From the IMG/VR virus record IMGVR_UViG_2657245124_000003: a stretch of 37,809 bases of DNA; one strand, 5' to 3'. Under the pieces are notes generated by a model. The model saw only the letters and a program-made list of their open reading frames with translations, ran no database searches and had not been told where the DNA came from. Position numbers and translations under genes: made by a program. Source of the stretch: a virus (taxonomy: Duplodnaviria > Heunggongvirae > Uroviricota > Caudoviricetes). Shown in pieces: positions 5,249-37,809 of the stretch. How positions within the stretch are numbered: position 1 is the stretch's first letter; every line of letters starts with the position of its first letter.

Positions 5249-5479
5249 ATGGCAAACCGCAAACCACACCGCGCTATCGCGGAGCGTCGTCACATCCAGA
5301 CTGAAATCAACCGCAGACTTTCCCGCGCATCACGCGTCGCGCAAATCATGCACATCAATATGCTGCATGAGCGCAGCCACGCACTATCAAACATTTATTC
5401 CGCCTCTGTTTACAGCTATCTGGCGAATGATCTGCACGAGCTTCAACAGCTCATCCAGCAGCAAAACAAACACCATTAA
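5249..5479 (+). CDS. hypothetical small protein upstream of gpA
   Basis: 76 aa ORF; basic N-terminus. Confidence 0.35.
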   Translation: MANRKPHRAIAERRHIQTEINRRLSRASRVAQIMHINMLHERSHALSNIYSASVYSYLANDLHELQQLIQQQNKHH

Positions 5480-5551
5480 TTCCTGTTCCGGGCCTTTCCT
5501 GCACCTTGCGGCGGGAGGCCTTCGCACATCTGTAACAAGAGGATTGCCGCA

Positions 5552-9780: not shown

Positions 9781-9797
9781 ATTTAAGGATGATATAG

Positions 9798-14984: not shown

Positions 14985-15138
14985 TGCTCCCCCTGAGTAA
15001 TTACAGGAAGATTACCCGCGCGCGAAACCGTTCTCCTTAACCCCCTGTTCTGCCTGTTTTCTTACAACAAAAGCCCTTTGTATCAGCCTGTTACGCTTTG
15101 CCATCATGACTGAAGAACCAGTCAGAGGGGCAAAAACT

Positions 15139-19814: not shown

Positions 19815-19956
19815 CCCACCCACATGGGGAAACCTCGGAATATGGGGCGACCGCCTTCTGGATGCACTGGAAACCTGTAACGCGGAGAAACGGGCCATTG
19901 CTGAACTGGATAAGAGAATAGCCGAACTGACACACCAGACGGGAGTAACACAATGA
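19675..19956 (+). CDS. o-spanin lipoprotein (LysC/Rz1-like)
   Basis: MNAPTLCLTLVLLTGCAG has a lipobox (LTGC); Pro-rich mature part; overlaps the i-spanin in another frame. Confidence 0.55.
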   Translation: MNAPTLCLTLVLLTGCAGTQNAPRPAPSVRLIPQTLTMPVTPPPFPDPPTWGNLGIWGDRLLDALETCNAEKRAIAELDKRIAELTHQTGVTQ

Positions 19957-21833
19957 CCAGTAAGAACTTTGCACTGATTACAGCCATGACACAGGCTGAA
20001 CTGACCCGGAAAGTGAATGAATATCTTGCGAAGGGGTGGCATCTTCAGGGGGACACACGGGTAGCTTACGAGCCCGGCACCCCGTGGTATCTCATGCAGG
20101 CCATGGTGGCCGATGGTGCCACCGAGACGCCCTCTGAGCCATTACCAAACAACAAGACGCCGGAATGGTACTACGTGGTTGTGCTTGCCGGGCAGTCCAA
20201 CGGCATGGCTTACGGTGAAGGGCTTCCGTTACCGGATTCTTACGATGCTCCGGATCCGCGCATTAAACAGCTGGCGCGCCGCAGTACGGTAACCCCGGGG
20301 GGAGAGGGTTGTACGTATAACGACATCATCCCGGCTGACCACTGTCTGCATGATGTGCAGGATATGAGTACGCTGAATCATCCGAAGGCGGACCTGAGCA
20401 AAGGTCAGTACGGCTGTGTGGGACAGGGACTTCATATTGCCAAAAAACTACTCCCGTATATCCCGAATAACGCGGGGATCCTGCTGGTACCATGCTGTCG
20501 TGGTGGTTCGGCATTCACTCAGGGCGCGGAGGGAACATTCAGTACGACCACGGGGGCCAGCCAGGATTCGGCGCGCTGGGGTGCGGGTAAGCCGTTATAT
20601 CAGGACCTGATCGCACGCACCAAAGCGGCATTACAGAAGAACCCGAAAAATGTGTTGCTGGCGGTGTGCTGGATGCAGGGCGAATTTGACATGAGCGCTG
20701 CCACCTACGCACAGCAACCGGACCTGTTCACGGCCATGCTGAAGCAGTTCCGTACTGACCTTTCCGGATTTAACGCGCAGTGCCATGGCGGCAGTGCTGC
20801 AGTTATACCGTGGATTTGTGGCGACACGACGTATTACTGGAAAAACACATACGGCACACAGTATGACTCCGTCTACGGCGCGTACAAAAACAGGGAGAGC
20901 GACAACGTTTTCTTTGTGCCGTTCATGACCGACGGTAACGGCAACAACACGCCCACCAACTTACCGGCAGAAGACCCGGATATTGCTGATGCAGGTTATT
21001 ACGGCGCGCAATCCCGTAGTAATGGTAATTGGGTATCGTCAAATCGTCCGACACATTTCAGTTCATGGGCGCGCAGGAGCATTATTTCGGATCGCCTGGC
21101 AACCGCTATTCTGAACGCTGTTGGTCGAACCAGCGCCTTCATCAGCGGTACCGCACCGGAGATTAAACCCTCGCCCGGCGGCGACACTCCATCGGGGCCG
21201 TCTGATGGTGACACATCCGTTCGTACAGTCTCCCTGCTGCCGACAGCCGGAGAGGCTGCTGCGCAGGGCTGGACCATCACCGGCGGCAGTGTTGCGCTGG
21301 AAGATGGTGTGTTTAAGGTTACCAAGCAGAGCAATAAAACTTGGTCCCTGATGCATCCGGTGGATGACGCAGTCTCCCTGCTGACACGGGGCGGCAGACT
21401 GAGCTGTAAGTTTCGACTGTCAGGCGCACTGACCAACAACCAGTTCGGTCTGGGAATTTATCTGTATACCGATGTAGCGTTACCTGACGTCGTGGCGATG
21501 ACCGGGACTGGTAACCCGTTCCTGATGTCGTTCTTCACCCAGACCACAGACGGCAAACTGAATCTGATGCATCACAAGAAAGCCGGAAACACAAAGTTGG
21601 GCGAGTTCGGGAATTACAGTAACGACTGGCAGACGCTGGAGCTGGTGTTCACCGCCGGCAGTGCCACGGTTACTCCGAAACTGAATGGAGTGGCTGGCCC
21701 GGCATTCCAGGTCATAAAAGACAGTCTGACACTGGGGCTGAATGCGCTGACGTTAACTGATATCACTAAAAATGCCGCGTACGGCGTCGATATCGGCAGC
21801 CTGGTGCTGGAAATCAATAATCCCGCAGTATAA
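19953..21833 (+). CDS. NanS-p-like esterase: N-terminal DUF1737 domain, SASA/SGNH-type carbohydrate esterase domain, C-terminal lectin-like domain
   Basis: 626 aa; N-terminus MTSKNFALITAMTQAELTRKVNEYLAKGWHLQG matches the DUF1737 pattern of prophage NanS-p proteins; LAGQSNGMAYGEG carries the GQSN block of sialate O-acetylesterases; inserted between the lysis cassette and tail-completion gene R. Confidence 0.6.
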   Translation: MTSKNFALITAMTQAELTRKVNEYLAKGWHLQGDTRVAYEPGTPWYLMQAMVADGATETPSEPLPNNKTPEWYYVVVLAGQSNGMAYGEGLPLPDSYDAPDPRIKQLARRSTVTPGGEGCTYNDIIPADHCLHDVQDMSTLNHPKADLSKGQYGCVGQGLHIAKKLLPYIPNNAGILLVPCCRGGSAFTQGAEGTFSTTTGASQDSARWGAGKPLYQDLIARTKAALQKNPKNVLLAVCWMQGEFDMSAATYAQQPDLFTAMLKQFRTDLSGFNAQCHGGSAAVIPWICGDTTYYWKNTYGTQYDSVYGAYKNRESDNVFFVPFMTDGNGNNTPTNLPAEDPDIADAGYYGAQSRSNGNWVSSNRPTHFSSWARRSIISDRLATAILNAVGRTSAFISGTAPEIKPSPGGDTPSGPSDGDTSVRTVSLLPTAGEAAAQGWTITGGSVALEDGVFKVTKQSNKTWSLMHPVDDAVSLLTRGGRLSCKFRLSGALTNNQFGLGIYLYTDVALPDVVAMTGTGNPFLMSFFTQTTDGKLNLMHHKKAGNTKLGEFGNYSNDWQTLELVFTAGSATVTPKLNGVAGPAFQVIKDSLTLGLNALTLTDITKNAAYGVDIGSLVLEINNPAV

Positions 21834-24777: not shown

Positions 24778-25378
24778 TTCGTTGTTACCACCATCAGCCA
24801 GCAATTTCATGCGTTGTGCCGAAGCCGTCGGAACACGCATTACAGACATTCCGGTAGACCTCAACACGCTGTGGTCGCCGGACACCTGCCCGGTGCATCT
24901 GCTGCCTTATCTCGCCTGGGCGTTTTCCGTTGACCGCTGGGATCGCAACTGGCCGGAAGAGACAAAGCGACAGGTGATTCGTGATGCATGGCTGATACAC
25001 CGACACAAAGGGAGCATCAGCGCACTGCGAAGAGCCGTGGAGCCTCTCGGCTACCTGATTGAAGTAAAGGAGTGGTGGCAACTCAACGAGGAGCCGGGAA
25101 CATTTCGCATTGTTGTCGGAGTACTTGATCAGGGCATCACCGATGAAATGCATCAGGAACTTGAGCGCCTTATTGCGGATGCAAAACCAGTAAGTCGCCA
25201 TCTGACGGGGCTGGCGATCAGCCTGAGTGTGAACGGAAAGATTTTCGTTGGTACGGGATGCTATCACGGCGATGCCCTGACGGTTTATCCCTACACCCCG
25301 GAGTCCATTATTGTCGAAGGGGACTATTTCCCTGCCCCGGCCATTCATTTAATTGATAATCTGAGAGTAAACGCATGA
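24770..25378 (+). CDS. I: baseplate protein (P2 gpI-like)
   Basis: ATG at 24770 overlapping the J stop (MSNSLLPPSASNFMRCAEAV...). Confidence 0.7.
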   Translation: MSNSLLPPSASNFMRCAEAVGTRITDIPVDLNTLWSPDTCPVHLLPYLAWAFSVDRWDRNWPEETKRQVIRDAWLIHRHKGSISALRRAVEPLGYLIEVKEWWQLNEEPGTFRIVVGVLDQGITDEMHQELERLIADAKPVSRHLTGLAISLSVNGKIFVGTGCYHGDALTVYPYTPESIIVEGDYFPAPAIHLIDNLRVNA

Positions 25379-26970
25379 CAGTGAAATACTACGCTATTCT
25401 GACTAATCAGGGCGCGGCACGACTGGCTAACGCGACGATGCTCGGCAGTAAACTGAATCTGACGCAAATGGCCGTTGGTGATGCAAATGGTGTGTTACCA
25501 ACACCAGCCCCTGCACAAACAAAACTGATTAACCAGAAACGCATTGCACCGCTGAATCTTCTGAGTGTTGACCCTAACAATCAGAGCCAGATTATTGCGG
25601 AGCAAATCATCCCTGAAAACGAGGGAGGATTCTGGATCCGTGAGATTGGTCTTTATGATGATGAAGGTGTACTCATTGCGGTGGCAAACTGCCCGGAAAC
25701 GTACAAACCGCAGTTGCAGGAAGGCAGTGGACGCACCCAGACTATCCGCATGATTCTGGTTGTCACGAACACCGAAGCCATCACGCTGAAAATCGACCCG
25801 TCTGTGGTTCTGGCAACCCGCAAATATGTGGATGATAAAATATCAGAGCACGAACAATCACGACGTCACCCGGACGCCTCGCTGACCGTAAAAGGTTTTA
25901 CTCAGTTAAGCAGTGCAATTAACAGTGAATCAGAAACACTGGCCGCAACACCGAAAGCGGTTAAGGCTGCATATGACCTGGCTAACGGGAAATATACCGC
26001 CAAGAACGCCACCACTACACAAAAAGGGATTGTTCAGCTCAGTAGCGCCACGAACAGCACGTCTGAAACGCTGGCAGCGACACCAAAAGCTGTTAAGGCG
26101 GTAATGGATGAAACGAACAAGAAAGCACCATTAAACAGCCCGGCACTGACCGGAACGCCAACAACACCAACAGCGCCACAGGGGGCTAATAGTACCCAGA
26201 TCGCAAGCACGGCTTTCGTTATGGCCGCGATTGCCGCACTTGTAGATTCGTCACCTGATGCACTGAACACGCTGAACGAACTGGCTGCGGCGCTGGGCAA
26301 TGACCCGAATTTTGCGACCACCATGACTAACGCGCTTGCGGGTAAGCAACCGAAGGATGCCACCCTGACGGCGCTGGCGGAGCTTGCTACATCAGCAGAT
26401 AAACTCCCATATTTTACAGGGGCAGATCGTGCCGCGTTAACCGCGTTGACAAGTGTTGGACGTGCCATTCTTGGTAAAACCAGCACTCAGGGAGTTCTTG
26501 ATTACCTTGGTTTAGGAGAAGGTTCTGCACTGCCCGTTGGTGTGCCCGTTCCGTGGCCCTCAGCAACACCACCAACGGGCTGGCTGAAATGTAACGGTGC
26601 AGCATTTTCTTCTGAAATGTACCCCAAACTGGCAAAAGCCTACCCCACCAATAAATTACCGGATTTACGCGGTGAATTTATCCGTGGCTGGGATGATGGG
26701 CGCGGGGTGGATGCCAGAAGGGGCATCTTAAGCATGCAGGGGTGGTTAACAGGAAGTCATTATCATAATATTCGGTCATGGGACGCGTGGGATAACACGG
26801 TACTGGTGCCAAATGACAAAGGAGGGGATAGTCTGTTGTCGACAGATAACGCCGTCCGGCAAGGTGCAATTAACGGTAGATTTACCAGTCAATACAGAAC
26901 GGAATCCTCAGAGGGGAATGAAACCCGCCCACGCAATATTGCCTTCAATTATATTGTGAGAACCGCATAA
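25375..26970 (+). CDS. H: tail fibre protein (P2 gpH-like) with collar domain and variable C-terminal tip
   Basis: 531 aa; repeated ETLAATPKAVKA tail-fibre repeat motifs; C-terminal Phage_Tail_Collar-like segment GWLKCNGAAFSSEMYPKLAKAYPTNKLPDLRGEFIRGWDDGRG; ends ...RPRNIAFNYIVRTA. Confidence 0.8.
   Translation: MTVKYYAILTNQGAARLANATMLGSKLNLTQMAVGDANGVLPTPAPAQTKLINQKRIAPLNLLSVDPNNQSQIIAEQIIPENEGGFWIREIGLYDDEGVLIAVANCPETYKPQLQEGSGRTQTIRMILVVTNTEAITLKIDPSVVLATRKYVDDKISEHEQSRRHPDASLTVKGFTQLSSAINSESETLAATPKAVKAAYDLANGKYTAKNATTTQKGIVQLSSATNSTSETLAATPKAVKAVMDETNKKAPLNSPALTGTPTTPTAPQGANSTQIASTAFVMAAIAALVDSSPDALNTLNELAAALGNDPNFATTMTNALAGKQPKDATLTALAELATSADKLPYFTGADRAALTALTSVGRAILGKTSTQGVLDYLGLGEGSALPVGVPVPWPSATPPTGWLKCNGAAFSSEMYPKLAKAYPTNKLPDLRGEFIRGWDDGRGVDARRGILSMQGWLTGSHYHNIRSWDAWDNTVLVPNDKGGDSLLSTDNAVRQGAINGRFTSQYRTESSEGNETRPRNIAFNYIVRTA
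26495..26520 (+). promoter_or_regulatory. hix/gix-like recombination (crossover) site inside the tail fibre gene
   Basis: TTCTTGATTACC-TT-GGTTTAGGAGAA: two 12-bp imperfect inverted half-sites around a 2-bp core, resembling the Hin/Gin/Cin site consensus (..AAACC-NN-GGTTT..); encodes the DYLGLGEG junction. Confidence 0.5.
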
Positions 26971-27581
26971 TGAATAACGCGATATTAAATGATGACCTTA
27001 TTGCCGTACAGGCAGGAAACATCGTCGTTTATAACTATGATGGTGAGACACGGGAATATATTTCCGAATCAACTGAATATCTTGCTGTGGGTGTTGGTAT
27101 TCCGGCTAATTCCTGTTTAGATGCCCCAGGCGCACATAAATCTGGCTATGCTATTCGCCGTTCGGAGGATTTAAATTCATGGGAGTATGCGCCAGACCAT
27201 CGTGGTGAAACCGTCTATAGCACTGACACGGGAAACACCGAAGAAATCACGGCGCTGGGTGACTACCCGAAAAATACAACCACTATCGCCCCGTTAACAC
27301 CATACGATAAATGGGATGGTGAAAAATGGGTGACAGATACTGAGGTACAACATCGTGCCGCAGTAGAAGCGGCAGAAACCAAGCGCCAGTCACTGGCTGA
27401 TGCGGCAATGGATTCCATAAGTCTGATTCAGTTGAAGTTGCGGGCCGGGCGGAAGTTGACGCAGGCAGAAACCACCCGGCTTAATGCCGTGCTGGATTAT
27501 ATAGACGCGCTGAACGCAATGGATATAAACATGGCACCAGATATCAACTTGCCGGAAATACCACTGGCATCAGCCAGTTGA
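26970..27581 (+). CDS. G: tail fibre assembly chaperone (P2 gpG/Tfa-like)
   Basis: 203 aa; C-terminal region (LNAVLDYIDALNAMDINMAPDINLPEIP) of typical Tfa type; immediately follows H. Confidence 0.7.
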   Translation: MNNAILNDDLIAVQAGNIVVYNYDGETREYISESTEYLAVGVGIPANSCLDAPGAHKSGYAIRRSEDLNSWEYAPDHRGETVYSTDTGNTEEITALGDYPKNTTTIAPLTPYDKWDGEKWVTDTEVQHRAAVEAAETKRQSLADAAMDSISLIQLKLRAGRKLTQAETTRLNAVLDYIDALNAMDINMAPDINLPEIPLASAS

Positions 27582-27587
27582 ATATAA

Positions 27588-28064
27588 CTAAGCCGCCCTC
27601 ACGATATAGTTAAATGCAATATTGCGGGGGCGGGTTTCACTACCACCTGTGTTACCAATACTTCCTCGTGAATGAAGCGTTGGTGATGGAATCAAACTCC
27701 CTCCTGTATTTGTGGCATCAAGCCCCCTGCCTTGTGTATATGTTTTTTTGAAAATCGTAGCCAACTCCCATTCATCTTTTGTGTCATATCCATCGTTAGC
27801 TACAACAATATGGCGGTGTTTTTCCAACATCCCGTTTTGAATGCTCAATAAAGCGCGTGCCGCATCAATTCCTCGCCCATCATCCCAGCCACGGATAAAT
27901 TCTCCGCGTAAATCCGGTAATTTATTGGTGGGGTAGGCTTTTGCCAGTTTGGGGTACATTTCAGAAGAAAATGCTGCACCGTTACATTTCAGCCAGCCCG
28001 TTGGTGGTGTTGCTAAGGGCCATGGAACAGGCACACCAACGGGCAGTGCAGAGCCTTCCCCCAA
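27588..28064 (-). other. silent tail-fibre C-terminal cassette 1 (collar domain plus variable tip; no ATG start)
   Basis: Begins at the LGEGSALPVGVPVPWP... junction (TTG called as start), shares about 68 aa with the H collar region, then a unique tip, ending RPRNIAFNYIVRAA; crossover-like site TTCCCCCAAACCAACGTTTTCATGC at 28056-28080. Confidence 0.7.
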
Positions 28065-28074
28065 ACCAACGTTT

Positions 28075-28578
28075 TCATGCGGCTCTTACGATGTAATTGA
28101 ATGCAACGTTGCGAGGGCGAGTTTCTGTACCTACATTTCCACTAATTTTACCAAACTGTTTTATATTACGAGAGCTAATGGCTCGTAGTGAGGAAGGCAC
28201 CCTTAAACCGGGTTCGTCTGTTTTAACTATTCCCCCGTCCCCGTATGTAGCCAGTATTCCAGGGTTTAATCCTTCCCGTGCACTTTCCACGGCAAGTCCG
28301 TTCCCGGTCCATAATTCCATATAGTGTGCATGATCCAAAATTGTGTGTGGCTGCCAATTAAGCAAAGCGCGGCCAGCATCCACCCCGCGCCCATCATCCC
28401 AGCCGCGAATAAATTCTCCCCGTAAATCCGGTAATTTATTTGCGGGGTAGGCTTTTGCCAGTTTGGGGTACATTTCAGAAGAAAATGCTGCACCATTGCA
28501 TTTCAGCCAGCCCGTTGGTGGTGTGGCTGAGGGCCATGGAACGGGCACACCAACAGGCAGCGCAGAACCTTCCCCCAA
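28075..28578 (-). other. silent tail-fibre C-terminal cassette 2
   Basis: Same conserved N-terminal collar segment and C-terminal RPRNVAFNYIVRAA with a different middle region; crossover-like site at 28570-28594 overlapping the stop of cassette 3. Confidence 0.7.
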
Positions 28579-28588
28579 ACCAACGTTT

Positions 28589-29017
28589 TCATGCTGCCCT
28601 TACGATGTAATTAAACGCAATATTACGAGGACGAATGGTTACATAATTGACCCCATCACCTCGTGAAGGCCCTGCAAATGAAAAACGGGAAAAGCTTGGT
28701 TGGTTAGAAACAATTTGGTCATAGTTATTGATTGAATGACCAGACCCAATGTCGAAATTACCTCCGTAATGAGAAAAACTTGTACCATCCTGCCCTGAAA
28801 GCAGGGTACGTCCCGCATCAATCCCGCGCCCATCATCCCAGCCACGGATAAATTCACCGCGTAAATCCGGTAATTTATTGGTGGGATAAGCCCTTGCCAG
28901 TCTGGGATACATTTCAGAAGAAAATGCTGCGCCGTTACATTTCAGCCACCCCGTTGGTGGTGTTGCTGAGGACCACGGAACGGGCACACCAACGGGCAGC
29001 GCAGAGCCTTTCCCCAA
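28589..29017 (-). other. silent tail-fibre C-terminal cassette 3
   Basis: Same architecture; crossover-like site at 29009-29033. Confidence 0.7.
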
Positions 29018-29027
29018 ACCAACGTTT

Positions 29028-29591
29028 TCATGCTGCCCTTACGATGTAATTAAACGCAATGTTGCGTGGGCGGTTTTCGTTTGCAGTTGGAACAATTTTT
29101 GAAGCATCAAGGCCAATCACTTTTGGGTAAACAACGCCGTCTGTCCTTTCTGTCACCATACTTCTGACTAAGGAGAAATAACTATTGTTTGTTGAGGAAT
29201 TTAAAGGCACCACTGCCCCCTTAAACGAGCCTACTGATTCCCATATTGAATAATTTTCAGTGTTTACAGTCTTGAACTCACCATAGATATTACGTATGGC
29301 ATCACCTTGAGCGGATAATATTGTTCTCCCCGCATCCGCACTACGTCCATCATCCCAGCCACGAATAAATTCACCCCGTAAATCCGGTAATTTATTGGTG
29401 GGGTAAGCCTTTGCCAGTCCGGGATACATTTCAGAAGAAAATGCTGCGCCGTTACATTTCAGCCAGCCCGTTGGTGGTGTTGCTGAGGGCCACGGAACGG
29501 GCACACCAACAGGCAGCGCAGAACCTTCCCCCAAACCAACGTTTTCGTTTTTATCCCTACCTATACCAACTATGTATTTTTCACGAAACAA
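29028..29591 (-). other. silent tail-fibre C-terminal cassette 4
   Basis: Same architecture; the conserved segment starts at about 29534; crossover-like site at 29526-29551; the upstream extension to 29591 is probably not translated. Confidence 0.65.
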
Positions 29592-29605
29592 AGAGGATGT
29601 TTTTT

Positions 29606-30205
29606 ATGCAAATTGGCTATATTCGTGTGTCAACAAATGACCAGAACACGGATTTACAACGCAATGCACTGAACTGCGCAGGATGTGAACTGATTTTTGA
29701 AGATAAAATCAGCGGAACGAAATCAGCCAGACCGGGATTGAAAAAACTGCTCAGAACGCTATCAGAAGGAGATACGCTGGTTGTCTGGAAGCTGGACAGA
29801 CTGGGCAGAAGTATGAAACACCTGATCACGCTTATTGAGGAATTGCGGGAAAAAGGTGTTAATTTCCGTAGTCTGACGGACAGCATTGACACATCAACAC
29901 CCATGGGGCGTTTCTTTTTTCACGTCATGGGGGCTTTAGCCGAAATGGAACGTGAATTAATTGTAGAGCGTACACTGGCCGGGCTGGCAGCAGCACGCGC
30001 ACAAGGACGCATTGGCGGACGTCGCCCGAAGTTGACAAAAGAACAACACGAGCAAATAGCGAGGCTGATTAAAAACGGTCATGACAGGAAACAACTGGCG
30101 ATCATTTACGACATCGGCATATCGACGATTTATCGTTATCACCCTGTAGGCGATATACAGGCTGAAGAAACAACCAGGCAGACTCAGGAAAATGAAAACC
30201 GCTAA
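29606..30205 (+). CDS. serine recombinase, DNA invertase (Hin/Gin/Cin/Pin family)
   Basis: 199 aa; MQIGYIRVSTNDQNTDLQRNAL...VVWKLDRLGRSMKHLI...C-terminal HTH (GISTIYRY) is the resolvase/invertase signature with the catalytic Ser in the IRVST motif. Confidence 0.85.
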   Translation: MQIGYIRVSTNDQNTDLQRNALNCAGCELIFEDKISGTKSARPGLKKLLRTLSEGDTLVVWKLDRLGRSMKHLITLIEELREKGVNFRSLTDSIDTSTPMGRFFFHVMGALAEMERELIVERTLAGLAAARAQGRIGGRRPKLTKEQHEQIARLIKNGHDRKQLAIIYDIGISTIYRYHPVGDIQAEETTRQTQENENR

Positions 30206-30224
30206 TCTGACCATTAGCGGTTTT
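30195..30224. terminator. bidirectional hairpin between convergent invertase and gpU genes
   Basis: aaaaccgctaat-ctgacc-attagcggtttt, perfect 12-bp arms with A/T runs on both sides. Confidence 0.6.
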
Positions 30225-30231
30225 GCGTTAA

Positions 30232-30726
30232 TCAAAACAGCCCTTTAACGGAGCTGGCCGCGCTGTTAAGGGATGATGTGACCTTATCTTTGAAGCCGGA
30301 CAGCATATCACTGAACGATGAGGATTGCAGGCGCTCCCGCAAATCCTCATCACAGCGTTCAAGAGTCAGTGAAAATTCTATCTTTTTCGCCTTACCGTAG
30401 CGATCAAACTCGGAGCGGGTCGTATTCGTTCCGGTCAGGACATACATGCCGTAAATCTGCCCGACACCATCAATCAGAGGCCAGGGGCGTCCTGTATATG
30501 CCTGCGAGGTCAGCAACGAAAGCGACACTTCGCCACCTGTAATTTCAGGATAAAGCACACCAGAAAGAACGATGCGATCATCGCCTGCCCCGATATACTG
30601 CCAGCTTGCTGAACGGTTAACGCGTTCATTTTTCACATGCCGCCAGCTTTTGTTTTGCTGTAACTGCTGATGCGGCAACGTGCGCAGCTCAAAAACAAAC
30701 ATGCCATAGATCATCATCATGGCCAT
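30232..30726 (-). CDS. U: tail protein (P2 gpU-like)
   Basis: 164 aa (P2 U is 159 aa); directly downstream of the tape measure on the same strand. Confidence 0.75.
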   Translation of the reverse strand: MAMMMIYGMFVFELRTLPHQQLQQNKSWRHVKNERVNRSASWQYIGAGDDRIVLSGVLYPEITGGEVSLSLLTSQAYTGRPWPLIDGVGQIYGMYVLTGTNTTRSEFDRYGKAKKIEFSLTLERCDEDLRERLQSSSFSDMLSGFKDKVTSSLNSAASSVKGLF

Positions 30727-30732
30727 GACTCC

Positions 30733-33576
30733 TCAATCTTTATCGTAAAAACTGCCACGCCCGGCACGGGCGCGCCGTTCCATCTCTGCCCTGACCATTT
30801 CACCGACCAGTTTCGCCAGTTCGCGGGGATTCTGTGTAACAACGTTATGCAGATGAACATGAATTTCACCACCAAATCCGGAGGCAACAGGCTCCCGGTT
30901 ACGGGAAGTTACAGGAACTGATGCCACTGGAGATCGTATGGCCTCCGCCACCGGGCGGGAGCTGGCCGCAACAACAGGGACCAGCGCCGGAGGCAGCGGA
31001 GCCGGGACCACGGGTGTGATATTAATTGCGGGGGCAGGCTTACTGGCCTGCGCAATCTTCCGCTCCTGCCACTCCCCACGAACAGCAAGTGCTCGGGGCA
31101 GGTTTTTAAAGACAATATCGCCGGGGCCAATGCGTTTTTTCGTCTCCTCAACCAGCTTACCTGTGTTATCAGCAATTTTGCTGAGTCTGCGTAGCGTCCC
31201 GGTATTGCTGTCTGTGAGCGGTTTGTTGTCTTTGGGTTTATCACCTCCGGTGCCATTGCCATTTTCCACAGGCTTCGGCGGATTGATTTTCGCCAGGTCC
31301 CCTTGAAGTAAGGCAACCTTGTCCTGAAGAATGGCCGCACGCTGTGCGTCTTCGATTTTCTTTCTCGCCCTTTCCGCTTCATCCGGAAGAACACCGAGTT
31401 TTTCAAGTATCCACGCCAGCGTATCCAGCAACATTTTTGCAGGCGTCAGAACAAGCTGTAACGCGCCACCAAGAACGTTACCGAATATCTCGCCAGCACT
31501 GGTACATTTATCCAGCGTTTCCTTGCTGGACTCCATCGGTGACAGCAGCGATTTAAACCAGTTAAACACCTGGCTGATCCCGCTTCCGATTGCGTCAAAA
31601 ACAGGGCCAAACCGTTCAAAGGTTTCACGCAACGGGTTCAGCCTTTCCATAATCCCGCTGAACACCCCGGCAAAAAATGCCCTGATGGGATCCCAGTATT
31701 TCCAGATAAGAACGGCAGCGCCGGCAAGCGCAGCCACGATAAGACTAACCGGACTGAACAGCGCCCCGATAGCTCCTCCCAGCAAAGAAACAGAACCCGT
31801 CACCATTCCCCACAGCGCAGGCAACACCCTGATGACATTCATTGACCGGGTAAGAATGTCGAAACCAAGACGCAAGGTGGCCAGCTTCCCGTAAAGCACC
31901 CCAATAACCAGCGACAACGAGCCAATCGTTGCAGTCATTGCCAGCAACGCACCGCCTGCTATCAGTAGCTGGCGCGTCAGTACCGGATGGGCCTGCGCCA
32001 GCGAGGTGATTTTTTCAAGCACCCGCGTGAGCCACTGCGTGACAGAACGCAGCGGACCGTCAACCAGATCACTGATGCGAATACGAAGACCTTCCCATGC
32101 GCTGTCGAGATTTTTCAGGTCTCCATCAAGATTATCGGCCATTACTTTTGCAACGCGATCGGCCTCTCCCCTTGCCCCCTGCAATTCTCTGGTCAGTTTT
32201 TGCAGTTCTCCTGAACCAGCCGCCGCAACAAGCGTCTGCAAACCAACGAACGCCTCTTCTCCGGCGATGTCCTTGAAGAAGGAGACCTGGTCTACCTGTC
32301 CGTATTTTTGTGTCGCCTTATAGAGATCAAGCAGCACATCCTCCATCGGGCGCATTTTGCCTCTGGCGTCAGCAACTGACACCCCCAGCTCTTTCAGTGC
32401 ATCAGCCGCAGCTTTTGGCGGTGATGCAAGGCGGGACAGACTTGCGCGCATGGCCGTACCAGCATCGCTTCCGCGAAGACCATTATTGGCAAGCATCCCG
32501 GCCATGGCCGCCGCTTCTTCAAGACTGATACCAAGTTTTGCGGCAACCGGACCGGTATACTTCATGGTTTCGCCCAGCGCGCGTAAATCAGTATTGGTCC
32601 GGGTGAATGCTGCTGTCAGCGTATCGCCAACCCGGTCCATTTGATCGGCTGTCAGGTTGAACTGTGTGAGGATATTGGAGCCTATATCAGCCGTCTCGCC
32701 GAGTTCGACGCCACCTGCCAGCGCCATATTAAGAACACCGGGCAATGCGGCCTGAATGGCCTGCGGAGTAAAACCAGCCATTGCCAGAAAGCTCTGCCCA
32801 CTGGCGGCATCACTCGCAGTAAACTGTGTTTCAGAACCAAGTTTTAACGCCTGCTCACGCAGCGCCTTAAACTGCGGGCTGTTTTTGTCGATTCGCGTCA
32901 GTGCCTGAACGCGGGACATCTCTTTGCCGAACCCGATCGCAGGCTGCAAAAAACGCCCGGCAGCATAGCCGCCAGCCGCTGCAGCACCAATTGCCAGCGC
33001 ACCACCTGTTTTCAGTTTTCCCGCGGTTTCCTGCGCGCGCGAATACCGCTCACGCGCCCGCGTTACACGCGCAAGCGCCTGCCGTTCGCGTTCAAGCTGG
33101 TTGTTGTACTGTTCGGTGCGTCTGATGGCCTGCTGGATGGTGTTATCGCTGCCTGTCAGGGAAATGCCGTGGCGTTTCAGCTCTCCGCCAAGTTCCCGCA
33201 TTTTCTGAATTTCCCGTGTGCGCGATTCATTCAGGCGTTCAAGCCGGCTGCTTAACTGCTGCATCAGCTTTTGTTGTTTTTCGCTGAGCACTGTACCCGT
33301 GCGTTGTAACTGATTAAGGGCGTTAAGCTGGCGTCGTGCTTTCACGATACCCGCATCCGCTTTACTGACAGCGTCGCGGGCGCGCTCAAATGAACGCGCC
33401 TGACGCTCGAGATTTTTGATCGCCCCCTGCGTTCGCTGGATGGAGTCACCAAACTGCCCCATCAGGCGGCGGGCGTTTTCGGCAGGCCGGGTCAGCCTGT
33501 CAACGGCGCTGAAAGCGACCCGGATATCAAGAGTCTTCATTGTCTGCACTCCCGCTGCGAAGTGCCGCCCGCTCAC
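30733..33576 (-). CDS. T: tail tape measure protein (P2 gpT-like)
   Basis: 947 aa; coiled-coil-rich N-terminus, Ala/Gly-rich hydrophobic central region, typical tape-measure composition. Confidence 0.8.
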   Translation of the reverse strand: MSGRHFAAGVQTMKTLDIRVAFSAVDRLTRPAENARRLMGQFGDSIQRTQGAIKNLERQARSFERARDAVSKADAGIVKARRQLNALNQLQRTGTVLSEKQQKLMQQLSSRLERLNESRTREIQKMRELGGELKRHGISLTGSDNTIQQAIRRTEQYNNQLERERQALARVTRARERYSRAQETAGKLKTGGALAIGAAAAGGYAAGRFLQPAIGFGKEMSRVQALTRIDKNSPQFKALREQALKLGSETQFTASDAASGQSFLAMAGFTPQAIQAALPGVLNMALAGGVELGETADIGSNILTQFNLTADQMDRVGDTLTAAFTRTNTDLRALGETMKYTGPVAAKLGISLEEAAAMAGMLANNGLRGSDAGTAMRASLSRLASPPKAAADALKELGVSVADARGKMRPMEDVLLDLYKATQKYGQVDQVSFFKDIAGEEAFVGLQTLVAAAGSGELQKLTRELQGARGEADRVAKVMADNLDGDLKNLDSAWEGLRIRISDLVDGPLRSVTQWLTRVLEKITSLAQAHPVLTRQLLIAGGALLAMTATIGSLSLVIGVLYGKLATLRLGFDILTRSMNVIRVLPALWGMVTGSVSLLGGAIGALFSPVSLIVAALAGAAVLIWKYWDPIRAFFAGVFSGIMERLNPLRETFERFGPVFDAIGSGISQVFNWFKSLLSPMESSKETLDKCTSAGEIFGNVLGGALQLVLTPAKMLLDTLAWILEKLGVLPDEAERARKKIEDAQRAAILQDKVALLQGDLAKINPPKPVENGNGTGGDKPKDNKPLTDSNTGTLRRLSKIADNTGKLVEETKKRIGPGDIVFKNLPRALAVRGEWQERKIAQASKPAPAINITPVVPAPLPPALVPVVAASSRPVAEAIRSPVASVPVTSRNREPVASGFGGEIHVHLHNVVTQNPRELAKLVGEMVRAEMERRARAGRGSFYDKD

Positions 33577-33795
33577 GCCAGCTAACCACTTCGCCGGGCG
33601 TCATCATGAAGATTTCGGCGGGCGACCAGTTAAAAATAACGGCAATATCTGCCACAAAGTCTTCTATGTGCTCAAAGCACACAACCGTGATCAGGCTTCC
33701 GTCGCCTGTTCGTTCTTCCCGCCAGAGTCCGCACCGCTCAAAAAATTTACGGCAACCGCACATAACTGAATAAAGTCACGGGATGCCATTTTTTT
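33527..33795 (-). CDS. gpE' extension, reached by programmed -1 frameshift from E (E+E' fusion)
   Basis: An A7 run on the sense strand (plus coordinates 33789-33795) lies where the -1 frame (ORF 33527..33763, extending upstream) is open and overlaps the T start, as in P2 E/E' and lambda G/GT. Confidence 0.4.
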
Positions 33796-34056
33796 GATCG
33801 TCACTTCATCCAGTCGCGGTGATGTCACGCGTGACAGCAGCGTAAACATGGATTCCGCTTTCAGATTCAGCACATCAGACAGCGACAAATCTCGCAGAGA
33901 TCCAGCCTGCTCAATAGCTCCGGTGATCTCCACATACGTGATTTTTTCGCCGCCTCGCTCAATTGGTTGGGTAAGTTTTACGCCACGCTCACTGGTTTCT
34001 TTCACAGTGTCAGCAACGACCGTGTTTTCGGTATCGATGTTTTTCGTCTCTTTCAT
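33691..34056 (-). CDS. E: tail assembly chaperone (P2 gpE-like), zero-frame product
   Basis: Position between the tail tube gene and the tape measure; acidic protein. Confidence 0.6.
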   Translation of the reverse strand: MKETKNIDTENTVVADTVKETSERGVKLTQPIERGGEKITYVEITGAIEQAGSLRDLSLSDVLNLKAESMFTLLSRVTSPRLDEVTIKKMASRDFIQLCAVAVNFLSGADSGGKNEQATEA

Positions 34057-34110
34057 CAGGAAACTCCTTTCAGTCAGAGGCGACGCACTGCGCCGCCTGC
34101 ATATTACTTA

Positions 34111-34623
34111 TCAGCCAAGCCCAAGCGCGGAACGGATGCGATCGGGCACAATGTCCTTGCCGTCCTTCCGGTAAATGAAGTTCAGCAGGTCAATCTCCCA
34201 CAACGGGCGATCGTTAACACTCAGCTTGTAGTAGGTGTTTTTAATGGCGTAAGTGTGTGATGTGGCTTCGCCCTGTTTGGCTTCCCCCATATCAATTTCC
34301 GTCACACGTCCGCGCATCTCGATTTCATACAGATCGCTTTCTGCATCGGTGTAGTATTCACCCGCAAAACGCAGCAGCGTGCCGTCAATCGTGCCGCCAT
34401 ATTTAAGGAACAGCGCACGAACAGCTCCCCCCATAACAAAACTCGCATCAAGCGCGGAGTCGTCCAGACCGAGATCAATACTTACCGCCCCCATCATGCC
34501 ACCACCACGATAGCTGTCGGTTTTGCGCGTCAGTTTAGGCAGGGTGACGGACGTCACCTTACCCACTTCGTTTTCACCATCCACAAACAGCGTAAAAAAG
34601 CGAAGATGTTTTGGTACAGCCAT
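34111..34623 (-). CDS. FII: tail tube protein (P2 gpFII-like)
   Basis: 170 aa (P2 FII is 172 aa); follows the sheath gene. Confidence 0.8.
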   Translation of the reverse strand: MAVPKHLRFFTLFVDGENEVGKVTSVTLPKLTRKTDSYRGGGMMGAVSIDLGLDDSALDASFVMGGAVRALFLKYGGTIDGTLLRFAGEYYTDAESDLYEIEMRGRVTEIDMGEAKQGEATSHTYAIKNTYYKLSVNDRPLWEIDLLNFIYRKDGKDIVPDRIRSALGLG

Positions 34624-35807
34624 CAGACACCTCCCAGCACCGCAAATGCGGGACCAAAGAATTCATCAGTAAACGACTGGTAAAGCTCCATGTCTTCCAG
34701 CGGGGGAACAGGCGTATATTTGTAGCGAATACGCACACGCCCCTGACGTAAATTCGTGGTGCCGTTATCCACCACGTCATACCAGCACGACGCCCCAATC
34801 AGTTTCCCGGCAGTAACCAGTGAATCCAGTTTTGCCCTGATGGCACTGATAACATCTTTCACGTTCGCAGGCGTCAGTGGACTGTCGATGGTTTCAAACT
34901 GCGCTTCCGCAATTGAATCAGCCAGCACCTGTGCGGTTCGGGTATACACCTCAAAGATGTAGGCGTTCGTTTCCGGTGTGCGGTTGCCCCAGAAGCGGAA
35001 CCCGTTGCGACGAATAATGGTCGTGATTTCTTTGTTGTTGAGGCTGTTGGCATCGCTGTCTTCGGCCTGCAACGACCAGAACACATGCCTGGACATCCCC
35101 AGCACATTTTTAACCGGAACGTTGGACAGTGATTTGTGCCATCCCTGCTCATGGTCAATGTACGCACGAAGGCCGCACGCATAGGCAGGCGCGGGGAACG
35201 TTTCGTTTTTGCCACTTTTCGGGTTGTAGGCGATGAAGTCCGGCCATAAGAGCATCACCTCACGTTCGTTGAATTTCTGGCGGTAGGTAATCACCTCAGC
35301 CATCGTGTTACAGCCGTGACATGAGGCATACACAAACGCGCGCAGTTTACCCGCAATCACGCACAGGGATTTTGTCACCGCCTCCGTGTCCAGCTCCGGC
35401 GCGGCCAGAATACGCGGACGGTATCCGATGCTTTCATCCTGCTCTGCAACAAGCAGCGCATACATCCCCGTATAGCTGCCGTCAGATTCAGAACCACCGA
35501 TAACCAGTTGATCCTGCGTCTTTCCGTCTTCTTCTTTGTGTTCAGCCACGCGAACGACGATCACCTTTGTGCTCACCTGGTCTGCGATGGCCTTAAGCGC
35601 ACGATAAAGCGTCCCCGTTGTCCCGCATTTTCCCAGCACGTCATTGACGCGGGTCAGCAGTGTGGGCTTGTTCAGCGGGAACAGCTTCGCGTCCGCATCA
35701 TCCGCCGTTGCCACGATACCGATAACGCTGGAATCAACATCGTTAATCGCTGTTACCAGGTCGGTATTTTCCGTAACACGGGCACCATGAAAACGAGTTT
35801 CACTCAT
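34623..35807 (-). CDS. FI: tail sheath protein (P2 gpFI-like)
   Basis: 394 aa; blocks such as FPLNKP, LRAF.YASCHGC, EQGWHK.LSNV, RRNGFRFWGNRT, YTRTAQV, YTPVPPLE match the P2 FI sheath protein from memory. Confidence 0.85.
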   Translation of the reverse strand: MSETRFHGARVTENTDLVTAINDVDSSVIGIVATADDADAKLFPLNKPTLLTRVNDVLGKCGTTGTLYRALKAIADQVSTKVIVVRVAEHKEEDGKTQDQLVIGGSESDGSYTGMYALLVAEQDESIGYRPRILAAPELDTEAVTKSLCVIAGKLRAFVYASCHGCNTMAEVITYRQKFNEREVMLLWPDFIAYNPKSGKNETFPAPAYACGLRAYIDHEQGWHKSLSNVPVKNVLGMSRHVFWSLQAEDSDANSLNNKEITTIIRRNGFRFWGNRTPETNAYIFEVYTRTAQVLADSIAEAQFETIDSPLTPANVKDVISAIRAKLDSLVTAGKLIGASCWYDVVDNGTTNLRQGRVRIRYKYTPVPPLEDMELYQSFTDEFFGPAFAVLGGV

Positions 35808-35964
35808 AGCTTTAGCCCCTTGTATCCGTTAAATGATTCGGCAACAATCATCACCCACCACGCGCGTAATCTCACCCCTGTGCCGTTCTCCCGATCCGGC
35901 GACAACAAAAAGCAGTAACCCCCTCCGCACGCACATGCGACCATGCCGCACAGGGAGGGAACAG

Positions 35965-37074
35965 ATGACCGATACCACCATGCAATTGCTCAGTCAGGGC
36001 ACAGACCCCGTGAAAATGCCGGATTTTGATATTCTCGCGGAGGGTAAAACGCTGTCAGGCGTGGCAGAGCGCCTGATGAGCCTGTCACTGACCGACAACC
36101 GGGGATTTGACGCGGACCAGCTCACCATCACGCTGGATGATGCGGATGGTCAGTTGCAGCTACCGCCACGGGGCGCGCGCCTGACGGTTCTCATTGGCTG
36201 GAAAGGAGAACCGCTGACAGAAAAAGGCACTTACATTGTTGATGAAATCGCTCACGAAGGACCGCCGGACAGGCTGACTGTTTCAGCCAGAAGCGCAGAT
36301 TTTCGGGATGAATTTAACGTTAAACGTGAGGTGTCCTGGCATGATGTGACCGTTGAGCGTGTGGTATCCGCCATCGCTCATCGGTATGGTCTGAAACCGC
36401 AAATCAGCGAAATGCTGATGGATATCGAAATCGACCACGCCGACCAGACCGAAGAAAGCGACATGTCCTTCCTTACGCGCATGGCGGAAATGCTGGGCGC
36501 AATCACCACGGTAAAAAGCGGTAATCTGTTATTCATTATGCCAGGCGGTGGCGTGAACGCACAGGGCCAGCCGTTGCCATCGTTCGCCATCACGCGCAGC
36601 AGTGGCGATCGCCATCAGTTCCGCATTGCTGACCGCGAAGCGTATACGGGGGTACGCGCTTACTGGCTTGATCTTAATTACGGGAAAAAGAAAAAAGTCA
36701 GCGTGAAACACCGCAAACCGCCAAAACCCAAAAAGGAGAAAAGCAGCAGCCGTGAAGGTGATTATATGGAAGGCGCGGAAGGCAATGTGTTTGTGTTACG
36801 CAAGACTTATCAGAACGAGCAGGCAGCAAGACGCGCAGCGGCGGCAAAGTGGCAGCAGCTACAACGCGAAGCCGCATCATTCTCCATCACGCTGGCATGT
36901 GGTCGTGCAGAACTCTACCCCGAAATGCATGGCACGGTAACAGGATTTAAAAGCGAGATTGATAATCAGGACTGGATTATTGCAAAAGCCGAGCACACCA
37001 TCGATAACAGCGGCTTTACCACGCAGCTTGAGCTTGAGGCAAAAATCCCGGAATGGATAGCAGAAACAGAGTGA
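35965..37074 (+). CDS. D: tail protein D (P2 gpD-like, late control gene D)
   Basis: From ATG at 35965 after GGGAGGGA; LSLTDNRGFDADQLTITLDDADGQ, SARSADFR, EVSWHD, FLTRMAE, NSGFTTQLELE match P2 D. Confidence 0.8.
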   Translation: MTDTTMQLLSQGTDPVKMPDFDILAEGKTLSGVAERLMSLSLTDNRGFDADQLTITLDDADGQLQLPPRGARLTVLIGWKGEPLTEKGTYIVDEIAHEGPPDRLTVSARSADFRDEFNVKREVSWHDVTVERVVSAIAHRYGLKPQISEMLMDIEIDHADQTEESDMSFLTRMAEMLGAITTVKSGNLLFIMPGGGVNAQGQPLPSFAITRSSGDRHQFRIADREAYTGVRAYWLDLNYGKKKKVSVKHRKPPKPKKEKSSSREGDYMEGAEGNVFVLRKTYQNEQAARRAAAAKWQQLQREAASFSITLACGRAELYPEMHGTVTGFKSEIDNQDWIIAKAEHTIDNSGFTTQLELEAKIPEWIAETE

Positions 37075-37116
37075 GCAACTTAGAATAGCAGCAGCACCAC
37101 GTTAAGGGAGGTCGCT

Positions 37117-37377
37117 ATGTTCCGTTGTCCGCTTTGTGGCGCATCTGCCCGTATCCGCACCAGTCGTCCGGAAAATGATTCAAACACCGTGCGGCAAAAG
37201 TATTACCAGTGTAACAACCTGGAATGCGGCGTATGCTTCTCAACACTGGAAGCTTTCCATAAATTCACATCAAAACACACCTCCGGCGTTCACTCTTCAG
37301 AAGGTATCCCGTGGCATGAGCTGCCAGCTTCACACAGGGGAAACAATCAGATGAGTTTGCCTTTACCTCAGAATTAA
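37117..37377 (+). CDS. ogr: Ogr/Delta-family zinc-finger late transcription activator
   Basis: MFRCPLCGASARIRTSR...YYQCNNLECGVCF has the C-x2-C...C-x4-C spacing and N-terminus of P2 Ogr (MFHCPLCQHAAHARTSR...YHQCQNVNCSATF). Confidence 0.8.
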   Translation: MFRCPLCGASARIRTSRPENDSNTVRQKYYQCNNLECGVCFSTLEAFHKFTSKHTSGVHSSEGIPWHELPASHRGNNQMSLPLPQN

Positions 37378-37568
37378 CAGGCAGAATTGCCGGAGTAACA
37401 AAAAAGCGATAGATTACGCGCGGGTGCCTTTCGGCTGATGGTCGGAGGGAATACCCGAAGGCCAGATGTGGAAAGGCCCCGGAAAACATTTCTGTTTAAC
37501 CGAGGCCCTAACATATCTACCTTAAGCAAGTGATAGGTTAGCGCCTCTCCAACAAAGGAGCAAGCGCT

Positions 37569-37709
37569 ATGTCGCAAAAATCGCTTACGGCCATCACGTT
37601 CTGCGTGACGGTAATCCTCATCATCTGGATGCTACACGGTTCGCTGTGTGAAATACGGATGAGCTTCTGGGGAGCGGAGTTTGCGGCGTTCTTACAGTGT
37701 AAGCAGTAA
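37569..37709 (+). CDS. Hok/Gef-family type I toxin (small membrane peptide), below the ORF-track size cut-off
   Basis: 46 aa: MSQKSLTAITFCVTVILIIWMLHGSLCEIRMSFWGAEFAAFLQCKQ; one TM helix followed by the SLCEIR...AAF motif shared by Hok, HokA, Gef. Confidence 0.6.
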   Translation: MSQKSLTAITFCVTVILIIWMLHGSLCEIRMSFWGAEFAAFLQCKQ

Positions 37710-37809
37710 GGAAACCGCGACGGGGGAGCAATCCCATAAGCGCTAACTTAAGGGTTGTGGTATTACGCCTGATATGATTTAACGTGCCGATGAATTACTC
37801 TCACGATAA

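Follow-up and report, generated by a model that had tools for sequence, protein, structure and literature searches.

Does the tail block of this P2-related prophage lie the wrong way round, and if so, with respect to what? The window, by which we mean the whole stretch of 37,809 nucleotides that was analysed (IMG/VR record IMGVR_UViG_2657245124_000003), had been described in the initial annotation as carrying an inversion of about 5.6 kb relative to P2 that splits D from the FI operon, and three causes had been put forward: an event mediated by the invertase at cryptic sites, a rearrangement in a decaying prophage and an assembly artefact. Comparison with P2, 186, Fels-2 and phiCTX bears out the inversion itself, and also the co-directional FI-FII-E-T-U-D order that had been taken as canonical. 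None of the three causes is borne out. The layout is the normal, fixed order of a large and common P2-related group, and not a rearrangement, a product of decay or an assembly error.

A complete virion gene set with a reversed tail operon

The P2-type virion set is complete in the window (Q, P, O, N, M, L, R, S, V, W, J, I, H, G, FI, FII, E/E', T, U and D, by Pfam and tblastn) and is accompanied by an Ogr-type activator gene detected with Pfam. Gene identities established by Pfam uphold the strand assignment made earlier: U, T, E/E', FII and FI (30232-35807) are encoded on the minus strand, and H, G, the invertase gene, D and ogr on the plus strand (Table 1). FI and D stand back to back, as had been noted, their spacer measuring 157 bp (35808-35964) against an estimate of about 158 bp. 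P2, 186 and Fels-2 share with the window the virion gene set, the E/E' frameshift and an Ogr-type activator; in these phages, however, the FI-U genes are co-directional with H-G and with D, which closes the F operon and is overlapped or abutted by U.

Table 1. Features of the late region, with positions in the window
Feature	Position	Strand	Basis or remark
Second GTTCT-N12-ACAAC copy, in the divergent P/O spacer	15047..15068		Internal reference for the late-promoter motif
H	25375-26970	+	Pfam
G	26970-27581	+	Pfam
Serine DNA invertase	29606..30205	+	Pfam Resolvase and HTH_7 domains; converges on U
Shared hairpin AAAACCGCTAAT-ctgacc-ATTAGCGGTTTT	30195..30224		Terminator scan and fold; putative bidirectional intrinsic terminator
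U, gpU-like tail protein	30232..30726	-	Pfam PF06995 Phage_P2_GpU, E = 2.6e-38; last gene of the FI operon
T, gpT tape measure protein	30733..33540	-	Pfam PF10145; start context; P88 annotation equal in length
E+E' extension	33527..34056	-	-1 frameshift at TTTTTTG (33745-33739); E' frame stop at 33527; frame translations
E, gpE	33691-34056	-	E frame; 97% identical to P88 E
FII, gpFII tail tube protein	34111..34623	-	Pfam PF04985 Phage_tube, E = 2.1e-46
FI, gpFI tail sheath protein	34623..35807	-	Pfam sheath domains; first gene of the minus-strand operon
FI-D spacer, putative bidirectional late promoter region (pF leftward, pD rightward)	35808..35964		Architecture conserved in 73 distinct relatives
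-10-like hexamer GATGAT for pF	35847..35852	-	Offsets 44-49 from site centre; predicted start ~35840
Putative Ogr-binding site GTTCT-N12-ACAACAAAAAG	35885..35912		Centre 35895.5
-10-like hexamer GACCAT for pD	35939..35944	+	Offsets 44-49, other side of the same site; predicted start ~35951
D, gpD baseplate hub / late control D protein, 369 aa	35965..37074	+	Pfam PF05954 Phage_GPD; ribosome-binding site and ATG
ogr, Ogr/Delta-type zinc-finger late activator, 86 aa	37117..37377	+	Pfam PF04606 Ogr_Delta, E = 5e-14

Some gene starts required attention. The mechanical open reading frame of T (30733-33576) reaches upstream to a GTG at 33576, and the true start is likely the ATG at 33540, which has a GGGAG ribosome-binding site. 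For the invertase, the start is most likely the ATG at 29606, with GAGG as its ribosome-binding site, which we preferred to a TTG at 29411. The D start codon at 35965 is preceded by a GGGAGGG ribosome-binding site, and a 413-aa reading of D from 35833 was rejected as an over-extension. The -1 frameshift of E/E' is annotated identically in the P2 record. The cysteine motif of the Ogr-type protein reads CX2CX24CX4C in translation, compared with CX2CX22CX4C in P2 Ogr (PMC3931495).

At its downstream end, the tail operon meets the invertase gene. The earlier description of U converging on the invertase over a shared hairpin was confirmed by terminator scan and folding: the element at 30195-30224 has a 12 bp stem that folds at -16.9 kcal/mol (z = -5.4) on one strand and at -15.8 kcal/mol (z = -3.3) on the other, and the stop codon of the invertase falls within it. 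The stem AAAACCGCTAAT-N6-ATTAGCGGTTTT has an A-run on one side and a T-run on the other, such that the terminator scan reads stem then U-tract on each strand. This hairpin may thus end both the invertase transcript on the plus strand and the transcript of the FI-U operon on the minus strand.

The same order in functional phages and in many genomes

In tblastn comparisons, the virion proteins of the window share 26-59% identity with their counterparts in P2, 186 and Fels-2, whereas with P88 the identity is 79-100%; for U, FI and D, the values are 99, 98 and 98% against P88 versus 46, 46 and 49% against P2. The late genes of P88 (Xuanwuvirus P88, NC_026014) and of 500465-2 (Gemsvirus, NC_049343) have an order and orientation identical to those of the window, including the convergence of invertase and U and the divergence of FI and D, and their FI-D spacers, likewise of 157 bp, are nearly identical to that of the window. 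Their tail regions are 93-96% identical to it at the nucleotide level. For the tail half, which is the region compared, identity amounts to 95.7% over 72% of the query with 500465-2 and to 93% over 68% with P88. The window differs from these two phages in its set of tail-fibre cassettes, in additional cargo (a methyltransferase with an ATPase, and a SASA esterase) and in its integrase, which is cut by an IS3-family element. At the immunity/integrase end, P88 has a short C repressor, whereas the window encodes a 134-aa HTH protein, a 216-aa protein and a DUF2511 protein. The early region of this prophage is mosaic.

The orientation of FI-U opposite to H-G and to D-ogr, FI and D being divergent neighbours, was found in P88, 500465-2, phiSM and P884B11, and also in phiT5282H (Novemvirus), 3LV2017 (Reginaelenavirus), ST16-OXA48phi5.4 (Reipivirus) and SEN4 (Senquatrovirus), so that at least six genera of Peduoviridae have this layout. 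The match between phiSM and the window is collinear, and KSP20 matches the window across the junction. Two of these phages are known to be functional: P88 is inducible with mitomycin C and forms plaques, with a burst size of about 65 (PMC5285337), and phiSM is released spontaneously, forms plaques and lysogenises K-12 (PMC6456863). The reading of the layout as a rearrangement cannot be reconciled with these intact phages sharing exactly the same orientation.

The layout is also frequent. The FI-D junction occurs in 1109 of 5426 complete Escherichia coli genomes, several times at 100% identity, compared with 1571 of the 5426 for the P2-type junction of U with D. All of the 80 IMG/VR loci examined, which were picked by similarity to the D protein of the window (D at ≥69% identity), have the inverted layout. 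Of the fetched loci with good coverage of both genes, 85 have the inverted order, the other 5 being canonical references. The gene order itself is documented in annotated genome records and maps; literature searches for an explicit account of the inverted tail block gave nothing relevant. We conclude that the window carries a P88-type prophage of the Peduoviridae, close to Xuanwuvirus and Gemsvirus, and that throughout its clade FI-FII-E/E'-T-U is fixed against the direction of both V-W-J-I-H-G and D-ogr. This reading, taken together with the origin and the promoter wiring proposed below, has a probability of roughly 85%.

Origin of the inverted order

A recent inversion private to this prophage, performed by the neighbouring serine invertase at cryptic gix-like sites, has in its favour that the invertase gene adjoins the FI-U block and that a genuine invertible tail-fibre region sits just upstream. 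This explanation is almost certainly wrong. The layout is kept in phiT5282H, 3LV2017, ST16-OXA48phi5.4 and SEN4, although the fetched sequence flanking their block shows no annotated invertase gene, and a synthetic flipped-back junction of U with D was matched in 0 of 1414 E. coli genomes carrying these genes. The two junctions, searched for gix-like half-sites and short inverted repeats as had been proposed, revealed neither; no inverted repeat joins 30206-30231 to 35808-35964, and only chance-level pairs were found across 27400-36100. Against the crossover site annotated in 186, the closest gix-like matches differ at 11 and 13 of 26 positions, a level that shuffled sequences also reach. This probe, a poor proxy for the real sites of the window's invertase, found nothing convincing across the whole window. 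A 16-nt match of 28584 or 29023 with 35780 lies inside coding starts, away from the junctions. The real sites of the invertase lie inside repeats of 211-240 nt. The invertase serves the upstream tail-fibre cassettes, whose invertible region spans about 26499-29591, and not the FI-U block. Like the invertible segments of the Gin/Cin/Pin/Hin systems (Mu G, P1 C, e14 P), the block has an adjacent serine invertase gene; unlike them, it lacks crossover repeats at its borders and never occurs in the other orientation. It is not an invertible segment.

That the order reflects misassembly, or the scrambling of genes in a decaying prophage, is hardly credible either. The prophage does carry damage in another place, its integrase being truncated by an IS3-family element (1 to about 320), but this truncation has no bearing on gene order. 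Identical junctions are present in the 1109 independent complete genomes mentioned above and in the sequenced virion genomes of phages, and the genes of the block are all intact open reading frames, 94-99% identical to those of P88. A further alternative is a mosaic exchange, in which a foreign FI-U module would have been put in the opposite way round rather than inverted in place. The mosaic nature of phage genomes speaks in its favour, and other late-gene rearrangements are known among P2-like phages, as in Smp131 (PMC3931495). However, the FI-U proteins are 32-46% identical to those of P2, and the head and baseplate proteins 26-59%; since the divergence is similar, the block does not look foreign. 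The trees of D and FI display the same split, and the spacing between pF and FI is unaltered. We consider such an exchange improbable, even though no formal line separates an inversion in place from the ancient exchange of the tail module for one in the opposite orientation.

We favour a single inversion that dates back to the clade's ancestor; it fits both the divergence of the virion proteins from those of P2-like phages and the monophyly of the inverted type. Rooting the neighbour-joining trees of D and FI on phiCTX places the inverted type, window included, in one monophyletic group, with the caveat that these trees have no support values, include only five canonical outgroups and draw on an inverted sample biased toward the D of the window. 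The ancestral background would have been canonical, as in P2, 186, Fels-2 or phiCTX, with one breakpoint of the inversion upstream of the late promoter pF and the other at the U/D boundary. The inversion would then have brought pF, together with its dyad-symmetric Ogr-binding site, beside D.

A putative two-way late promoter between FI and D

The consensus of P2 late promoters is TGT-N12-ACA (PMC3931495). This motif has four exact matches in the window, compared with nine expected, and none in the late spacers, which at first suggested the absence of a P2-type site. This idea was dropped when the alignment of the relatives revealed a left half-site reading TCT. Two TGT-N20-ACA dyads that we had read by eye in the spacer were likewise abandoned on seeing the conserved N12 register. 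The half-sites (in the window, TCT at 35887-35889 and ACA at 35902-35904) are kept in 73 of 73 distinct relatives, while the 12 nt between them vary; the left half-site is TCT in 47 of the 73 and TGT in 25. The TCT of the window is one mismatch away from the canonical TGT and recurs in its P/O site. The exact motif GTTSTN12ACAAC is matched twice in the window, in the P/O and FI/D spacers only, with 0.13 matches expected by chance. There is just one T-N-T-N12-ACA site in the FI-D spacer. A scan of this spacer detected no full consensus sigma-70 promoter, and Rfam gave no match in the region of interest.

The position of the putative site agrees with that of a pF promoter. Its centre lies 80-88 nt from the ATG of FI in the 73 distinct relatives, and the corresponding distance in P2, 186, Fels-2 and ST437phi4.1 is 79.5-82.5 nt (82.5 nt in P2 and 186), matching the clade of the window. 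As this distance equals that of pF in P2 and 186, pF appears to have moved along with the block. Hexamers of the form xAxxAT occur at mirror offsets of 44-49 nt on each flank of the site in the 73 distinct sequences. In position-specific counts, A45, A48 and T49 are each conserved in 66 of 73 on the pF side, and on the pD side A45 is found in 72, A48 in 62 and T49 in 68. In its new place, the promoter would drive FI-U and probably also D.

The precedent is found in P2 itself. A single activator site (3057-3087) is annotated in the P2 record for pP and pO, with starts at 3016 (-) and 3127 (+), i.e. 55.5 nt on either side of the centre of the site at 3071.5; for the FI/D spacer, the predicted starts lie about 56 nt on either side. 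In both cases, one dyad-symmetric site occupies the midpoint between two divergent promoters, the version in the window being putative. The two differ in the left half-site, TCT in the window and TGT in P2 pP/pO. They also differ in deployment: P2 has this design at the head and packaging operons only, whereas the window also has it at the tail sheath operon and D. Following the proposed inversion, the single T(G/C)T-N12-ACAAC site would now lie midway between the two -10-like hexamers. Bound Ogr would activate FI-U leftward from ~35840, and D, probably with ogr, rightward from ~35951, yielding the same design as the divergent pP/pO promoters of P2. We infer both the binding of Ogr at this site and the two transcription starts.

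Alternatively, the layout could be a feature of the lineage while D depends on an independent sigma-70 promoter or on read-through only, the D-side block serving some other purpose. The D-side hexamer GACCAT is indeed a weak -10, the conserved CGCGCGCG block at offsets 31-39 is without counterpart in P2 pF, and a sigma-70-like match within D (36937-36966) could possibly serve ogr. Against this alternative, the spacer has a sole T-N-T-N12-ACA site, and the D-side hexamer occurs at the exact mirror offset across the 73 distinct sequences. In addition, the P/O spacer of the window has an identical CGCGCGCG block beside the P-side -10, and pP/pO of P2 offers a precedent for the shared-site design. 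Independent expression of D seems to us rather unlikely. We lean, with moderate confidence, towards the view that the ancient inversion turned the one-way pF into a two-way promoter, at which one bound activator would drive both the sheath/tube operon and D, with ogr. The dyad symmetry of the Ogr site would allow a single activator to serve both directions.

Implications

If the two-way promoter is real, D, once the terminal gene of a 6-kb operon, would now be promoter-proximal, and the P88-type clade would provide a clean natural case in which inversion about a symmetric activator site rewired an operon. Our literature searches found no prior description of such promoter rewiring in this clade. 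The biological point is a modest one, namely that the FI-D spacer looks like a second, putative, bidirectional Ogr-dependent promoter, and the P88-type layout opens no major question. P2 alone is the wrong yardstick for the gene order of 'P2-like' prophages. The P88-type order, present in about one fifth of complete E. coli genomes, is a marker of the clade and not a sign of damage. The 413-aa version of D and the small 'hypothetical' open reading frames in the FI-D spacer overlap the conserved promoter region and are probably wrong calls.

Orientation of the tail block

The ORF map and Pfam, from which gene identities and strands were taken, confirm that FI to U lie on the minus strand, as opposed to H, G, D and ogr on the plus strand. 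E contains a slippery TTTTTTG (33745-33739) that gives access to the E' frame, a feature shared with P2. The proposed hairpin common to the converging invertase and U genes was found as a 12-bp stem that contains the invertase stop codon; both strands read stem plus U-run, with folds of -16.9 and -15.8 kcal/mol (z = -5.4 and -3.3). In the P2, 186, Fels-2 and phiCTX records, FI-FII-E-T-U-D all run in one direction, 3' of H-G, so the inversion of the window block with respect to the canonical P2-like order is real.

Features of the tail region in the window
Feature	Position	Strand	Remark
H	25375-26970	+	ORF map/Pfam
G	26970-27581	+	ORF map/Pfam
Cassette	27588-28064	-	begins with H-repeat copy
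Cassette	28075-28578	-	begins with H-repeat copy
Cassette	28589-29017	-	begins with H-repeat copy
Cassette	29028-29591	-	begins with H-repeat copy
Serine invertase	29606-30205	+	ORF map/Pfam
Hairpin	30195-30224		
gpU	30232-30726	-	Pfam
T, tape measure	30733-33576	-	Pfam; probable start ATG 33540
E	33691-34056	-	ORF map/Pfam
FII, tube	34111-34623	-	Pfam
FI, sheath	34623-35807	-	Pfam
FI-side -10-like hexamer	35847-35852	-	GATGAT (reverse complement)
D-side -10-like hexamer	35939-35944	+	GACCAT
D	ATG at 35965	+	GGGAGGG precedes start
ogr	37117-37377	+	Pfam

With D starting at this ATG, the FI-D spacer measures 157 bp (35808-35964), and the 413-aa ORF starting at 35833 is an over-extension of D. 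Public annotations overlay this spacer with ORFs: a 43-aa hypothetical protein in P88 (gp50, 13132-13263 of its locus L001) and the over-extended 413-aa D in 500465-2 (12539-13780 of its locus L002) and in RefSeq E. coli genomes. Such calls, lying over a conserved putative promoter spacer, are likely to be false or to have their start codons set too far upstream.

A fixed gene order shared by functional phages

In a megablast search of window positions 25000-37809 against GenBank phages, both junctions of the block (30206-30231 and the FI-D spacer) were spanned by collinear, single-strand matches in 500465-2 (95.7%) and P88 (93%), and by further collinear matches in Citrobacter phage phiSM, P884B11, 520873, PhiR44_2 and Chuche; the strands annotated in the matching phages are those of the window. 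Back-to-back FI and D also occur in the remoter phages Enterobacter phiT5282H (Novemvirus), Klebsiella 3LV2017 (Reginaelenavirus) and ST16-OXA48phi5.4 (Reipivirus), Salmonella SEN4 (Senquatrovirus) and Serratia KSP20. Among 80 IMG/VR loci gathered with a D-protein profile (D 69-99% identical to that of the window), FI, FII, E, T and U, wherever included, lie directly upstream of D on the opposite strand. The block is fixed and not switchable: a synthetic 'flipped-back' U-D junction, assembled from the U and D sequences of the window, was found in 0 of the 1414 E. coli genomes carrying those genes. The P2-type U-D junction, searched with P2 sequence, is present in 1571 of 5426 complete E. coli genomes.

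The initial annotation considered an assembly artefact, the rearrangement of a decaying prophage or an invertase-mediated event at cryptic sites. The first is ruled out by the P88-type FI-D junction, which occurs in 1109 of the 5426 complete genomes (at least 80% query coverage), several matches being 100% identical to the window. A rearrangement was to be refuted by intact relatives with exactly this order, and functional P88 and phiSM share it. In E. coli K88, mitomycin C induced P88, which forms plaques, has a burst size of ~65 and has been imaged as a virion (PMC5285337). Phage phiSM of Citrobacter rodentium is released spontaneously, forms plaques and lysogenises K-12 strains; its authors termed it fully functional and P88-related (PMC6456863). 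They described siphovirus-like virions with non-contractile tails (PMC6456863), at odds with the 92-98% identity between the phiSM record and the sheath, tube and D region of the window.

Nor does the evidence favour the invertase. We found no inverted repeat joining the two junctions. Compared with the Mu-like crossover site of the 186 record, the best-matching junction sequences differ at 11 and 13 of 26 positions, the level of shuffled sequence (mostly 11-14). The FI-U block failed all invertible-segment tests, and phiT5282H, 3LV2017, ST16-OXA48phi5.4 and SEN4 have the same FI/D layout with no annotated invertase gene beside the block. The obvious real substrate of the enzyme is the set of upstream cassettes. 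Four tandem minus-strand cassettes (27588-29591), with no separate assembly gene between them, each open with an inverted copy, 211-240 nt long and 90-92% complementary, of part of H (26499-26738). Region 26499-29591 resembles an invertible system with several cassettes that encode tail-fibre C-termini.

All virion proteins of the window, from head and tail alike, share 26-59% identity with their counterparts in P2, 186 and Fels-2, and 79-100% with those in P88; the tail block is thus not a foreign-looking module, and the entire phage belongs to a deep sister lineage. Neighbour-joining trees of 86 distinct D and 81 distinct FI sequences, rooted on phiCTX and built with biased sampling, just five canonical references and no support values, group the inverted-type sequences into one clade and leave P2, 186, Fels-2 and ST437-OXA245phi4.1 (Gegevirus, canonical) outside it. 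Since co-directional order is common to phiCTX and the enteric canonical phages, the simplest history would be a single ancient inversion in the common ancestor of the P88-type phages.

The region belongs to the P88-type Peduoviridae and is ordinary among them. Its gene order can already be seen in many annotated public genomes and ICTV-classified genera and hence is not new; our literature search found no paper discussing the inverted tail-block order explicitly.

A putative bidirectional late promoter

A small, testable addition is the putative bidirectional pF/pD promoter between FI and D. P2 late promoters share TGT-N12-ACA and require the zinc-finger activator Ogr (PMC3931495). In the P2 record, divergent pP and pO are served by one activator site (3057-3087, with its half-sites centred on 3071.5), and their transcription starts, 3016 and 3127, lie plus or minus 55.5 nt from the centre. 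Among the FI-D spacers of 86 loci are 73 distinct sequences, 136-195 bp long, all 73 with T(G/C/T)T-N12-ACAAC; the left half-site is TCT in 47, TGT in 25 and TTT in one, and the 12 nt between half-sites vary freely. The window site is GTTCT-N12-ACAACAAAAAG (35885-35912). GTTSTN12ACAAC has two exact matches in the 37.8 kb (0.13 expected by chance), in this spacer and in the divergent P/O spacer (15047-15068). Across relatives, 80-88 nt separate the site centre from the start codon of FI, a distance that matches that of pF in P2 (82.5 nt), 186 (82.5), Fels-2 (81.5) and ST437phi4.1 (79.5), which suggests that pF travelled along with the block.

Position-specific counts around the site centre in the 73 sequences revealed -10-like hexamers at offsets 44-49 on each side: GA(T/A)(T/G)AT towards FI (A45, A48 and T49 each in 66/73) and RA(C/T)CAT towards D (A45 in 72/73, A48 in 62/73, T49 in 68/73). 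Transcription in the window would start near 35840 (-) and 35951 (+), ~56 nt each way from the centre, and pF, together with a new pD, probably follows the P2 pP/pO design. For the window, we infer Ogr binding, transcription starts and termination from sequence. Its Ogr finger is CX2CX24CX4C, as compared with CX2CX22CX4C in P2, and both its late sites (15047-15068, 35885-35906) have TCT, not TGT, as left half-site. The mechanical gpO ORF begins at ATG 15106; as the predicted pO start falls near 15113, ~56 nt from site centre 15057.5, and P88 annotates the equivalent of 15139, the latter is the more likely gpO start.

Cargo and integrase

In the window and P88, ogr directly follows D. The distance ranges from direct adjacency to ~4 kb in relatives (L021, L024, L026, L034 and other IMG/VR loci), and 500465-2 (L002 12539-15375) carries a 340-aa minus-strand gene in the gap. 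The D-ogr gap appears to be a site of cargo insertion in the P88-type clade.

The first ~320 bases of the window match IS3-family transposase genes present in thousands of E. coli records. This element cuts the integrase to a 119-aa ORF (292-651) with the Int_N domain only, where the closest intact relative, carried by E. coli AR_0013, encodes an integrase of 333 aa; the prophage may thus be unable to excise.

Two cargoes are absent from P88. The first is a low-GC (~32%) pair (8935-11495) between the portal gene and replication gene A, at about the position of old and tin in P2. It encodes a D12-class adenine methyltransferase (PADLOC PD-Lambda-5_B, E = 9e-122) and a 565-aa AAA/ABC-type ATPase with weak matches to Septu PtuA, Gabija GajA and PARIS AriA, the PD-Lambda-5_A model not being among its top matches; the pair is likely a defence system. 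The second is a 626-aa SASA-family esterase ORF (19953-21833). Its domains are DUF1737, SASA (sialate O-acetylesterase-like) and DUF6645, and it lies between tail gene R and the lysis genes (LysC-like, 19645-19956), where P88 has no gene; it is probably similar to the NanS-p esterases found in Stx prophages. Rfam matches isrK (61.9 bits) and, next to it, C4 antisense RNA (83.2 bits) at 4995-5192, both within or beside an Ash-family ORF (4938-5555).
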